Part shown: in pieces, positions 1-30,610 of the stretch
Position numbering within the stretch: the stretch's first letter is position 1
How the letters are laid out: each line of letters opens with the position of its first letter
From: Eledone cirrhosa
Taxonomy: Eukaryota
NCBI GenBank assembly: GCA_964016885.1
Contig: OZ024742.1
Location: forward strand, 161,014,001 to 161,078,000
DNA: 64,000 bases
Direction: 5' to 3'
Notes under the pieces: model-generated
Seen by the model: only the letters and a program-made list of their open reading frames with translations
Database searches by the model: none
Told to the model about the DNA's origin: nothing
Program-made: the position numbers and the translations under genes

Positions 1-2367
1 CTGCACAAGAGGTAAATCGCCAGGTTTAGATGGTCTGCCCTACGAACTTTATGCATTTATGCCAGACTTGTTCGGTGACCTCTTGGCAGACGTCTACTGC
101 AACTGGCAGCAGAACGGGAGCATTCCCAGTTTTGTGACCGGGAACAGTGACGCTGCTGAGAAAAGACCCGAACAAGGGGGATGTTATTGATAATTTCAGG
201 CCCATAAGCCTGCTAAACGCAGAGTTCAAGATTTTGGCCAAGGTGTTAGCAACGAGGTTGGCGCTTGTCGTCAATGGTCTGGTGGGAGAGGCGCAGACAT
301 GCGCCATTCCGGACAGATCCATACACGACAACCTCCACCTCATGCGATACATCATAGAGAGGGTGGTTAAAGAACCTGGCAAGGGTGGGGCCCTGATCAA
401 CTTGGATCAATCCAAAGCATTCGATAGGGTCGACCATCGGTACCTGGCGGCGGTCCTCGAGGCAGCCGGTTTCGGGCCCGTTTTCAAGGGTTGGATCGCA
501 GCAATATACAGCGACATCTACTCAGTTGTGAGGGTGAACGGTCACCTGTCGCAGCCGTTCAGCATCATGCACTCAGTCCGCCAGGGTTATCCCCTCTCGT
601 CCCTCTTGTACGTATTGGCTCTCGAGCCGTTACTGCACAAACTGGGGGCCATGAGGGCGTCCCACGCGAACTAGGATGCGGGAAATCCGAGTCGGCTTAC
701 GCTGACGACGTCACCATGGTGGTGTCGAGCATCAGACACGTCCAGATGCTCAGCACCGTTCTCAAGGAATACGAAGCGGTGACCTGAGCAAAGAAAAACC
801 AGGAAAAGTCGGTGGGCTACGCATTTGGAGAGGCAAGTCCATGCCGTCCGACAGCGTCGTGGGGCGTTGGACGGACGGACCGGTTAAATTGCTCGGGGTC
901 TGGTTTGGACCGGACCTCCAGATGGAGAAAAACTGGAACGAGGTGACGAGCAGTGTGGCCTCCCTCACCCAGAAATGGGCTGAGAGGAAGCTGTCCCTGA
1001 AAAGCCGGGCGGAAGTGGCGAATGCGTACATCGCATCCGTCATCTGCTACCGCCTGACCCTCGTCCCTTGCTCCAGCCCAACTCTCACCAAAATGGAGCG
1101 CCTCCTCTTCCGCTTTTTGTGGAAGGGACGCGCTCCCATGGTCAGACGATCCATCTGCTGTCAACACCCGTTGCGTGGAGGACTGGGCATGCCATGGCTG
1201 ATGATGCGCAAACATGCGCTGAGGCTGCGACATCTCTGGTGCTTCCTTGATGGTGAACGGGTGTGGTCGCCGTTCGCCAGGCACATTTTCCCACAGCTCG
1301 TCTCCTTGACGGAGCTGCAGTCCTGGGTCAGAAAAAGACCGAGGGATAGCGCTTAGAAACTGGAATGTCTCCAGGCGCTCACTGCCCTCTCCCAGTTGGG
1401 CACGAGTATCGGTGGAACATCCACCTCGGCGTTCTATAGAGGACTAGTGGAGGGGAAGAGCGACGACATTCTCGGAGAGATCCTGGGCGTCGAAGAAGAT
1501 CAGCTGTTTGCTCTCTTCAAGAGAACTTTCAGCCCGGGGCCTATGGATAACTTCCAAAAATCCCTGGCCTGGCAGTGCTACCGGGGAGCGCTGCCGGAAG
1601 TGCCCTCAGCCTGGCAGTGCTACCGGGGAGTGCTTCCGGAAGTACCGTCAGCCGAGCCTCTCCGAGATGCGCGCAGAGCGACGAAACCGTTGTGCACGCA
1701 CTCGTTCAGTGCCCGAGCATTGCTGACTTGTGGAGCTATGTCGAACAGTTGCTGTCGCGTGTGGGACTGATCCGGTTGTCGACTGAGTCCATTGTGCAGA
1801 TGGTCTCACCGTCTTCCTTCGAGGAGGAAGGGCAGGCGGTTTTCATCTGCCTGGTGGCCATGGCGAAAGAGATTGTGTGGTGGACAAGGTTAAAAGGATT
1901 AAAGACAAACACTTTCCTCTTCGGCGAATCCATAATTAACTTTTTCAAGTTTCACTTGAAGAGGAAAATCAGGGTGGAGAGGCAAGTGCTGTCTTCTAGC
2001 AAGTTTGTTGAAAGGTGGATGAATGTAGCGAGAATGGTCCGAGTGAACGGGACCACTCTGAATATACGTCTGTAGTTTGAGAGATGGAAAAATTGAGAGA
2101 GGGCGCTTTCCCTGGTAGTCAGGGTGGCTGTGGTCTTTTGTGTGGGTTTTCGCCACGGGTAACCCTCGGAGGTTTCCCCCCTATTGGGGAATTTTTCATT
2201 GTTTCAATTTTCATTTTATTGCTTATATATATATATGTTTTATGTCTTTTTTTTCTTTTCTTATATAAATAATAAAAATATTTACACGCACAAAACCCAC
2301 ATCGTACCGTCCTGTGCCGTCTGTAATGTTTTTCTTGATGTCAGCCCTTGTGGCCAATAAAGAAATC
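1..2367 (+). mobile_element. Tx1-clade (L1 group) non-LTR retrotransposon copy A; 3' part of ORF2 (RT plus C-terminal CCHC), disrupted; runs off the window start
   Basis: ORF pieces 147-674, 491-787, 841-1356, 1396-1770 and 1575-2075 carry FRPISLLN, DQSKAFDRV, SVRQG, YADD and ETVVHALVQC. They are collinear with ORF2 of copy B but have stops and frameshifts. Ends AATAAAGAAATC then (ATT)n. Confidence 0.93.
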
Positions 2368-2427
2368 ATTATTATAATTATTAATGTTATTATTATTATT
2401 ATTATTATTATTATTATTATTATTATT
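2368..2427. repeat. (ATT)n microsatellite joining Tx1 copies A and B
   Basis: Direct reading of the sequence. Confidence 0.97.
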
Positions 2428-2635
2428 GGCGACCTACGTAGGAAATCGTATTATCGTGAGCTCCGCAAAGGTTTGTTATTTCCGTTTGTTTAAAAATTGC
2501 CATTTATGGAAAATTTTATTGTAAACTGTTTATAAGCACACATACATTGTTTTCCGAAAAGGACACCCAAAAAGATTGGGGCCTTGTGCCCAAAATTTTA
2601 ACTTTTATTATTATCCAAAAATTTCTTTGAAAAAA

Positions 2636-29195: not shown

Positions 29196-29355
29196 GAGGC
29201 GGCGGAGTGGCATAGTGGTTAGGGCTTTAGATAAAATGCTTTGTGGTATTCGTTCTGGCTCTTTGCCCTTTGAGTTTAAATTCTGTCGAGGTCAACAATA
29301 CCTTTCATCCTTACGAGGTCGATAAAATAAAATCAGTCTAGTACTGGGATCGATT
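29196..29355 (+). mobile_element. Diverged MetaSINE-type SINE
   Basis: GGCGGCGGAGTGGCATAGTGG head; CCTTTCATCCTTACGAGGTCGATAAAATAAA. Confidence 0.75.
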
Positions 29356-30293
29356 CTTCCTTTATATCTCTTTCTTACTTCCCCTCTCTCTCTCTCTCTA
29401 TATATATATATATATATATATATTTTTTTTTTTTTTTAAAAAAAGGAAAATAATGACTTCACTTGTAGTTCTAAACAATTTAATTTTATTTTATATTATT
29501 ATAATCTTACAATTTGGTTTCGTAGATCTAGTAAGTTCTTTGTTAACTTCGGTGGGGATAAGGAATATATATATATATATAAACACGAGAAGATCGATTC
29601 TTCCTGTATATCTTTTTCTTATTTCCTCTCTATGGTGCCCTCGCTCTCTCTCTCTCTCTCTCTCTCTCTCTCTCTCTCTCTCTCTCTCTCTCTCTCTCTC
29701 TCTCCTCCTACTATTTCACTTTCCCTCTTTACCTTCTTCCTTGGAAGAAATCAGCTATGTTCAGACCGGTAGAGAGGATGAGCTTCGCCAGGTTTAAAAT
29801 GCCCACGACATGCTCTATATCACTACGGTGTCCGACAACTCAACCGAGAATTAAGAGCCCATACACATATATATGTATGTGTCCAAAATCATCTGGCATG
29901 GAACGAAGAATCCAGATGCTCGAGCAAAGGTTATTCAGAAAGCTACAACGCATCACATACACAGAACACAAGACAAACAGCTTGGTCAGACAGCAAGTTA
30001 ACAAATATGATGCAACATTGAAGAGATAATAGCTCGGCCTGTACTGATATGTATCCCTCCACTGTTCCTTGTCTGTCGCAGACCATTATCCAGAACACAG
30101 TAAAAGTACAACCAACAAGAATCAGACAAAGATAACATCAGTATCTGAACAGGTCTTAACACTGTAAGCCTTCTATGCATGATGGAGGACAAAGACCAAC
30201 GGTGAATGCTAATTGCCAAAACGTCTCGAGTGGGACACCAATGGTTGGTGACACCATTTATTGGAAGACGATGTTGTTAGCGTTAAATGCGTT

Positions 30294-30610
30294 TCTTGGC
30301 AGTACCGGTAGAGCGTCAGACACCATGCTTTACAGCATAGAGTTATGCCCCTTTGCGTTCTGAGTTCAAATCCCATCGAGGTTTATTTGCCTTTTATCCT
30401 GGGGGACACCATACTATCACACCTTTTGAACCTCCAGCTTTATCGCTTTGACCAAAAACCCGAGCACTACTGCCCCTAACGCAGAGGATCGGAAGTTATC
30501 CAAATATCGCTTCTTTTTTGTGCTGTCGCCATAGAGACCTCTGGTAAAATAAAGCACAAGTAATGCACTGGGTAATTCCTGGCCTTGTGCCAAAAGTAGA
30601 AACAATTATT
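30294..30610 (+). mobile_element. MetaSINE-type SINE split by the CRE-like fragment
   Basis: Head and core at 30294-30403; core remainder and tail GGCCTTGTGCCAAAAGTAGAAACAATTATT at 30546-30610. Confidence 0.75.

Follow-up and report, generated by a model that had tools for sequence, protein, structure and literature searches.

Judging from its sequence, a Tx1-type long interspersed nuclear element (LINE) is very probably the mobiliser of an abundant short interspersed nuclear element (SINE) in the genome of Eledone cirrhosa. We analysed a window of 64,000 nucleotides (nt) from this genome (assembly GCA_964016885.1, contig OZ024742.1, positions 161,014,001 to 161,078,000, forward strand), in which Tx1 elements and SINE copies end in the same 3′ motif with a short predicted hairpin. 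This motif, its register, the target-site duplications (TSDs) and an intact second open reading frame (ORF2) with APE endonuclease and reverse transcriptase domains were observed directly. Among 15 LINE families the SINE tail matched, in register, only Tx1, and both elements carried a common TSD signature, so that the partnership proposed in the preliminary description of this DNA is well supported. The combination of a 3′ motif shared in register and a shared target duplication suggests that the SINE is likely copied by the Tx1 ORF2 protein.

Exact matches to the motif amounted to 19,519 Tx1-type ends and 167,272 SINE ends in the 3.0-Gb genome, and the reversed pattern gave no match for either element. 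Both kinds of end could be aligned without gaps as CCTTGTG, 9 nt, GAAA and 2 nt, followed by the target; the spacer was 10 nt in one Tx1 family (family C) compared to 9 nt in the other ends. Neither Tx1 nor SINE ends carried a poly(A) or an element-specific tail. When stem and loop were left unspecified, the pattern AATAAAGAAA-NN-ATTATTA had 13,121 matches in the genome, and the hairpin or a variant differing in one or two letters was present at all 100 sites listed. Similarly, 27 of 30 Tx1 copies chosen by their zf-RVT protein domain alone had the hairpin, the exceptions being two copies without a 3′ end and one without the 5′ arm. Sequence of the SINE was found upstream of 202 out of 208 SINE-type hairpin ends; the other ends, six in all, comprised SINE fragments, SINE variants and one Tx1 end. 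Among 149 in-register SINE ends, 95-99% fixation was observed in the loop and inner stem, and the 9-nt spacer differed between subfamilies. SINE and Tx1 ends differ in the second stem pair, which is G-C in the SINE and C-G in Tx1, and in the signal AATAAA, which adjoins the hairpin in every Tx1 family and is missing from the SINE end; a transcript of RNA polymerase III would not need it. All Tx1 and SINE ends quoted in the preliminary description were present in the window (Table 1). Further SINE ends lie at 25760 (minus), 31266 and near 41,710, and a variant copy ends at 13238 (minus). Elsewhere, a 25-bp Tx1 insert consisting of the hairpin-to-end motif alone, with a 17-bp TSD, was located within a SINE tandem, and a second locus contained a similar SINE end of 30 bp.

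The preliminary description had also assigned an (ATT)n tail to the elements. This part has to be revised: the element does not encode (ATT)n, which represents the target together with its duplicate. Full-length SINE copies ended at GAAACA, and ATTAT came next in 98 of 112. TSDs of at least 11 bp were found at offset 0 in 54 of these 112 copies, 44 of them outside simple repeats, compared to 18 out of 1668 in a swapped-flank control. The 44 non-repeat TSDs were 11-21 bp long (median 16), so that the 14-19 bp given earlier were about right, and 40 of them began with ATTAT. By the same rule, and considering only copies with a resolvable 5′ boundary, Tx1 had TSDs of at least 11 bp in 19 of 68 copies (15 of 54 in one sample, five of them non-repeat, and 4 of 14 in another). 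Nine of the 68 copies had TSDs outside repeats, which were 11-22 bp long and all began with ATTAT. The TSD lengths of SINE and Tx1 were indistinguishable (p = 0.40). CR1 elements had no TSD of at least 11 bp in 50 copies despite their (ATT)n end (Tx1 versus CR1, Fisher p = 1e-5 for all and 0.01 for non-repeat TSDs; 12 near-full-length CR1 copies without a proper 5′ boundary were left out of the counts). Given that the abundant CR1 also ends in (ATT)n, an ATT end by itself is not diagnostic of the pair. SINE and Tx1 copies of families A and B were of similar age (median pairwise identity ~90%) and were nested in each other's flanks. The CR1 and Dong samples were younger, though chosen partly for intactness.

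For the comparison with other LINEs, 3′ ends were taken from every LINE family met in ~2 Mb of the genome, including 600 kb as evenly spaced 10-kb pieces, plus targeted searches for reverse transcriptase and RNase H. One natural copy from each of 15 families was compared in register with two SINE subfamilies; the sample contained no ends of L2, Jockey, Hero, R2 or Penelope, which thus lie outside the comparison. The SINE tail was matched by all six Tx1 families (13-18 of 25 letters, shuffle p = 0.0002-0.017) and by none of the nine others, which comprised two CR1, three Dong/R4, three RTE/RTEX and one Ingi-like family (6-10 of 25 letters, p ≥ 0.18). No better-matching LINE clade was therefore present among these nine.

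It is improbable that another LINE, rare or extinct and unsampled, mobilises the SINE and that the likeness to Tx1 arose by chance or convergence. Candidates would be CR1 and Nimb-type elements, considering that the abundant CR1 ends in (ATT)n and that Nimb or CR1-Zenon serve the Meta SINEs of bivalves (PMC11481361; the papers cited by PMC number are represented here by parts of their text). In addition, the sample covers ~2 Mb out of 3 Gb, and the stretch shared by SINE and Tx1 comprises ~16 of 25 letters, compared to 35-61 bp at 72-95% in the bivalve pairs. However, the CR1 tail did not match that of the SINE (p = 0.8-0.9), the CR1 hairpin was unrelated, and long TSDs were missing from the 50 CR1 copies. 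LINEs bearing RNase H were rare (29 matches), with readable ends that were Ingi-like, (CAA)n, and the sense-strand ends of Dong/R4 elements were (AAT)n or (ACAT)n. The SINE-type hairpin ends counted above likewise belonged to SINE copies, fragments or variants, apart from the one Tx1 end.

The sampled LINEs showed some further features. Of the two CR1-type families, a young one has a 945-aa ORF2 and an (ATT)n end without long TSDs, and a distant one ends in (ATTGA)n. In a young Dong/R4 family (1216-aa ORF), seven of eight copies had part of the SINE tail in the region 5′ of the ORF, apparently by capture. Dong/R4 elements often had Tx1 and SINE copies located tail to tail in their (AAT)n ends, so that one LINE clade provides targets for another.

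The three LINEs of the window that end in the hairpin motif belong to the L1/Tx1 group, as they have an APE endonuclease, a reverse transcriptase and a C-terminal zinc finger and are nearest to L1 ORF2p. The best PDB match of ORF2 was human L1 ORF2p (E = 5e-53; R2, E = 2e-20). Elements of the Tx1 clade have an ORF1 with an RRM-like region and a CCHC knuckle. In the window, the ORF1 knuckle is spaced CX2CX4HX4C, and look-alikes of ORF1 in a part-protein search, to be taken as a lead, have zf-CCHC and ZCCHC3-type RNA-binding domains. The ORF1 type and the target specificity suggest Tx1 as the clade label; no named Tx1 protein was found among 55 homologues. A tree of 33 C-terminal ORF2 pieces, thinned from 76 with at most three per hairpin type, placed the copies flanked by (CTAT)n, which had the stems YGCC/GGCW, in a single well-supported clade; the ATT-flanked families had the stems AACC/GGTT, AGCC/GGCC and GGCC/GGCY. 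Insertion of Tx1 is thus sequence-specific, with ATT and CTAT targets each on their own branch, and the two clades represent a natural switch in endonuclease specificity. The hairpin was kept across families that have an ORF2 identity of 55-90% and differ in the remainder of their 3′ untranslated regions (UTRs), including the (CTAT)n clade. The SINE was never found at (CTAT)n, neither in 112 flanks nor among the 100 listed non-A flanks, none of which started with TATC. As side observations, the (CTAT)n-targeting clade is the monophyletic sister of the ATT families and one of its copies has a 19-bp TSD. Tandem Tx1 arrays with ~6-kb spacing, including mixed families, were present at C1:441098534-441134911 of the genome and at 1-8331 of the window, and in all 12 family B copies shown the 5′ start was preceded by an ATT array.

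Taken together, we consider it probable, though less so than the partnership itself, that Tx1 mobilises the SINE via recognition of the putative hairpin by ORF2. In the proposed mechanism, the Tx1 endonuclease would nick the lower strand of the target at its ATAAT end with a stagger of 14-19 bp, and the freed 3′ end would pair with AUUAU in a read-through RNA that includes the former target site. The hairpin, located 15 nt upstream, would set the register. By analogy with zebrafish L2, recognition would be specific for the CUUGU loop and would depend on shape in the stem. Reverse transcription would begin at AUUAU directly after the element end. We infer in this way the nicking, the priming and the hairpin binding by ORF2. 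Pairing of AUUAU with the target would confine the SINE to the target of the ATT families, although the (CTAT)n clade has the same hairpin. The SINE tail itself likely goes back to an old template switch, by which it was acquired from the 3′ end of a Tx1 element.

Several observations weigh against this reading. The predicted stem has only 3-4 bp, the energy of the hairpin was weak (z = -0.2 to -1.9 relative to shuffles), and the hairpin was part of the minimum-energy fold in all three Tx1 ends but in one of four SINE ends. The covariation of the stem claimed in the preliminary description held between families but not among SINE copies. Across 14 family rows, 85.7% of 56 cells paired and three of the four pairs changed on both sides; the covariation score was reached by 0 of 500 shuffles, a count which is not a probability as the rows are related and hand-picked. 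Moreover, the outer pair was broken in 7 of the 14 rows, and the changes represent perhaps four independent events. No Tx1 family had the G-C second pair of the SINE, and the SINE stem together with AATAAA had nine matches genome-wide, eight of which were mutated SINEs and none a LINE family. Among SINE copies, a hand count gave 75 complementary double mutants in the 100 listed, compared to 76 expected from independent transitions. Stems with A-U or U-A as the second pair were examined as a possible third family (785 matches), which was rejected because all 100 matches listed were SINE double mutants. With regard to the insertion scars, non-repeat TSDs were rarer in Tx1 (9/68) than in the SINE (44/112, p = 2e-4), probably owing to the location of Tx1 copies in arrays and their frequent rearrangement. 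In addition, most of the Tx1 and many of the CR1 copies had been selected for a short ATTATT flank. Inserts with ATTAT duplications but without the hairpin gave 7 and 6 candidates versus 2-12 for control words, in what is a weak test. Finally, the likeness between SINE and Tx1 reached significance only when anchored at the 3′ terminus: a whole-element search without this anchor reached p = 0.04-0.28, and the best match of family B was its 5′ UTR hairpin and not its 3′ end.

Some of these points would also fit an alternative that we regard as unlikely but still worth considering, namely that Tx1 mobilises the SINE independently of the hairpin. Pairing of AUUAU with the target alone would then give the specificity, and the hairpin would be a polyadenylation or RNA-stability element of the LINE that persists in the SINE as a relic. 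This agrees with the position of the hairpin next to AATAAA in every Tx1 family, its marginal energy and the SINE copies without compensatory changes. Target pairing clearly matters, as the SINE avoids the (CTAT)n target of a sister clade with the same hairpin, and SINEU was reported to be mobilised by Tx1 without a common tail (PMC4494074). On the other hand, the SINE swapped a whole base pair while spacer letters drifted, insertions begin at a fixed base and not at any downstream AUU, and the hairpin-free inserts with an ATTAT scar were not in excess, as far as the weak test goes. Despite the loss of AATAAA and a spacer that varies between subfamilies, the loop, GAAA and the exact spacing of 15 nt have been retained in the SINE. 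This retention is a better argument for the hairpin than its energy or covariation, and recognition of the hairpin by ORF2 remains the reading that we prefer.

The 5′ end was readable in three Tx1 lineages, each of which has a long 5′ UTR hairpin. It is located 40-55 nt upstream of the ORF1 ATG, at a distance of ~140-160 nt from the element start, and a second hairpin precedes it. In the window, such hairpins occur in family B (Table 1) and at ~25590-25565 (minus), and the top of the stem is flipped in the CTAT clade. This hairpin is possibly a translation or processing signal. That the SINE tail is related to it, either taken from it or as an old SINE end captured there, appears very improbable. 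The family B 5′ hairpin does have the exact GGC-CTTGT-GCC top of the SINE and scores 23-27 against the SINE tail, compared to 17-24 for the 3′ end of family B, and the Dong family mentioned above has captured a piece of the SINE tail at its 5′ end. However, the whole-element match is marginal, being reached by 8-55 of 200 shuffles, and the loop of the 5′ hairpin differs in related copies and families. Such an origin would leave the exact 3′ register and the common TSD unexplained, and Tx1 would remain the mobiliser.

The SINE shows several traits of a SINE2: it is ~185 bp long, non-coding, flanked by TSDs and present in at least 167,272 copies. A B box was found in its head; a strict A-box pattern had no match, though an A-box-like stretch is visible, and ARAGORN and Rfam gave no match. 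Its central block is a candidate Meta-domain. The features of the window are compiled in Table 1.

Table 1 Tx1, SINE and other elements in the 64,000-nt window, in window positions
Feature	Position	Strand	Remarks
Tx1 family A copy, broken ORF2	1..2367	+	5′ part beyond window; 81-85% aa identity to intact ORF2
Family A 3′ motif	2343..2367	+	AGCC-CTTGT-GGCC (2343-2355), AATAAA, GAAA-TC; target array from 2368
(ATT)n target array	2368..2427	+	separates two tandem Tx1 copies
Tx1 family B copy, full-length	2428..8331	+	ATT arrays flank both sides
5′ UTR hairpin	2572..2598	+	top GGGC-CTTGT-GCCC; ~40 nt upstream of ORF1 ATG
ORF1	2636..4632	+	CCHC knuckle and RRM-like region; frameshifted near 3130-3150 in window copy
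ORF2, intact	4667..8086	+	1139 aa: APE endonuclease, reverse transcriptase, zf-RVT
Family B 3′ motif	8307..8331	+	AACC-CTTGT-GGTT (8307-8319), AATAAA, GAAA-AC; target from 8332
SINE copy	9516..9697	+	hairpin TGGC-CTTGT-GCCA 9671-9683; two extra A in spacer
SINE copy	10013..10193	-	hairpin TGGC-CTTGT-GCCA 10037-10025; 19-bp TSD starting ATTAT
SINE copy, mutated hairpin	13238..13426	-	14-bp TSD starting ATTAT
RTE/RTEX-type LINE copy	17190..20700	-	directly downstream of family C Tx1
Tx1 family C copy, decayed	20788..25723	-	internal deletion; 3′ hairpin GGCC-CTTGT-GGCC 20813-20801; 5′ UTR hairpin near 25583
SINE copy, full-length, within ATT array	25736..25918	-	directly upstream of family C Tx1; B box ~+75
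SINE copy, split	30296..30604	+	~150 bp unrelated DNA at 30400-30545; hairpin TGGC-CTTGT-GCCA 30580-30592
SINE end, 5′-truncated	31247..31290	+	hairpin intact
RTE/RTEX-type LINE copy	46159..49319	+	
RTE/RTEX-type LINE copy	52528..53004	-	
Broken frames	59766..63998	-	putative Helitron Rep/helicase, judging from motifs

A SINE mobilised by Tx1 has been published before, and the new part here is the structured tail common to the SINE and Tx1. In crocodilians, mobilisation of SINEU by Tx1-Mar was inferred from common target preference and age (Kojima 2015, PMC4494074). That system resembles ours in its proposed Tx1-clade mobiliser, its long TSDs and its tandem insertion. SINEU differs in its snRNA heads and poly(A) tails, and that study did not find any LINE with the 3′ terminus of SINEU-1, whereas the E. 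cirrhosa SINE has a B-box head, lacks poly(A) and has its 3′ motif in common with Tx1. The same text cites Kibi, (TC)n, and Koshi, (TTC)n, as Tx1 LINEs that insert into simple repeats and form tandem arrays; the E. cirrhosa elements insert into (ATT)n and (CTAT)n, and a SINE partner of Kibi or Koshi is unmentioned in that part.

Stringent pairs within the L1 clade have been proposed from sequence alone in maize, sorghum and Chlamydomonas (Ohshima 2012, PMC3472496; Ohshima 2013, PMC3747384). In LINE1-1_ZM with ZmSINE2/3 and L1-1_CR with SINEX-3_CR, an L1-clade LINE and a tRNA SINE have a common 3′ hairpin whose loop is conserved and whose variable stem is compensated; the pair described here likewise has a conserved loop, and its predicted stem varies with changes that may be compensatory. 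The plant and algal pairs share ~50-80 nt and have homopolymer tails, with no microsatellite target described in the parts of these papers cited here, whereas the E. cirrhosa pair is from an animal, shares ~25 nt and has no tail. For zebrafish ZfL2-1 and ZfL2-2, experiments demonstrated that the region between endonuclease and reverse transcriptase binds the stem generally and the loop specifically (Hayashi 2014, PMC4176376, where "TX1" is the name of a mutant and not of the clade). In contrast, the present case concerns the L1/Tx1 group, has a much shorter stem and is proposed from sequence. The pair is probably of the stringent SINE-LINE kind, and is notable for the animal L1/Tx1-group element and the absent tail.

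The E. cirrhosa SINE is similar to MetaSINEs, including SepiaSINE2 of cuttlefish, in its putative tRNA-type head and in the conserved central block downstream of it (Nishihara 2016, PMC4824008). In the MetaSINE superfamily, a 66-bp Meta-domain directly follows the tRNA head, and the partner LINEs were stated in 2016 to be unknown (PMC4824008). The partners later given for bivalve Meta SINEs are Nimb and CR1-Zenon, with Tx1 nowhere mentioned in the part of that paper cited here (PMC11481361). A 2026 repeat annotation of octopus lists active L1-Tx1 and many unclassified SINEs, which are unpaired in the part cited (PMC13282606), and the corresponding parts of PMC4758252, PMC5786205 and PMC5753468 contain nothing on a Tx1/SINE pair. 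A Tx1/SINE pair with a shared tail was not found in the open-access literature; Repbase, SINEBase and subscription journals lie outside this search, and a prior mention is therefore possible. As the shared match is too short for a tail search of the BLAST type, similar pairs may have been missed elsewhere.

Whether LINEs of the L1 clade were originally strict or relaxed recognisers of their RNA is an open question, for which plants and algae provide the strict cases in the literature cited here (PMC3472496, PMC3747384). The intact ORF2 of an animal Tx1, together with its 13-nt candidate signal and the stem variants that occur naturally, allows a direct test of this question, and this Tx1 can be compared against the solved structures of human L1 ORF2p. 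We tentatively suggest, as a possibility slightly short of an even chance, that an animal L1/Tx1 lineage kept strict, tail-less recognition. The 13-nt CUUGU hairpin would then act like a ruler in positioning AUUAU on the ATT target after nicking, would have been reused by the (CTAT)n sisters and would drive the dominant SINE of this genome. A likely engine can also be named for a SINE with more than 167,000 copies, and Tx1 may be the partner LINE that was missing for MetaSINEs in 2016. If the tail proves to be common to the MetaSINEs of cuttlefish and hydrozoans, stringent recognition by Tx1 would be ancient in animals and the relaxed poly(A) mode of mammalian L1 would be derived.

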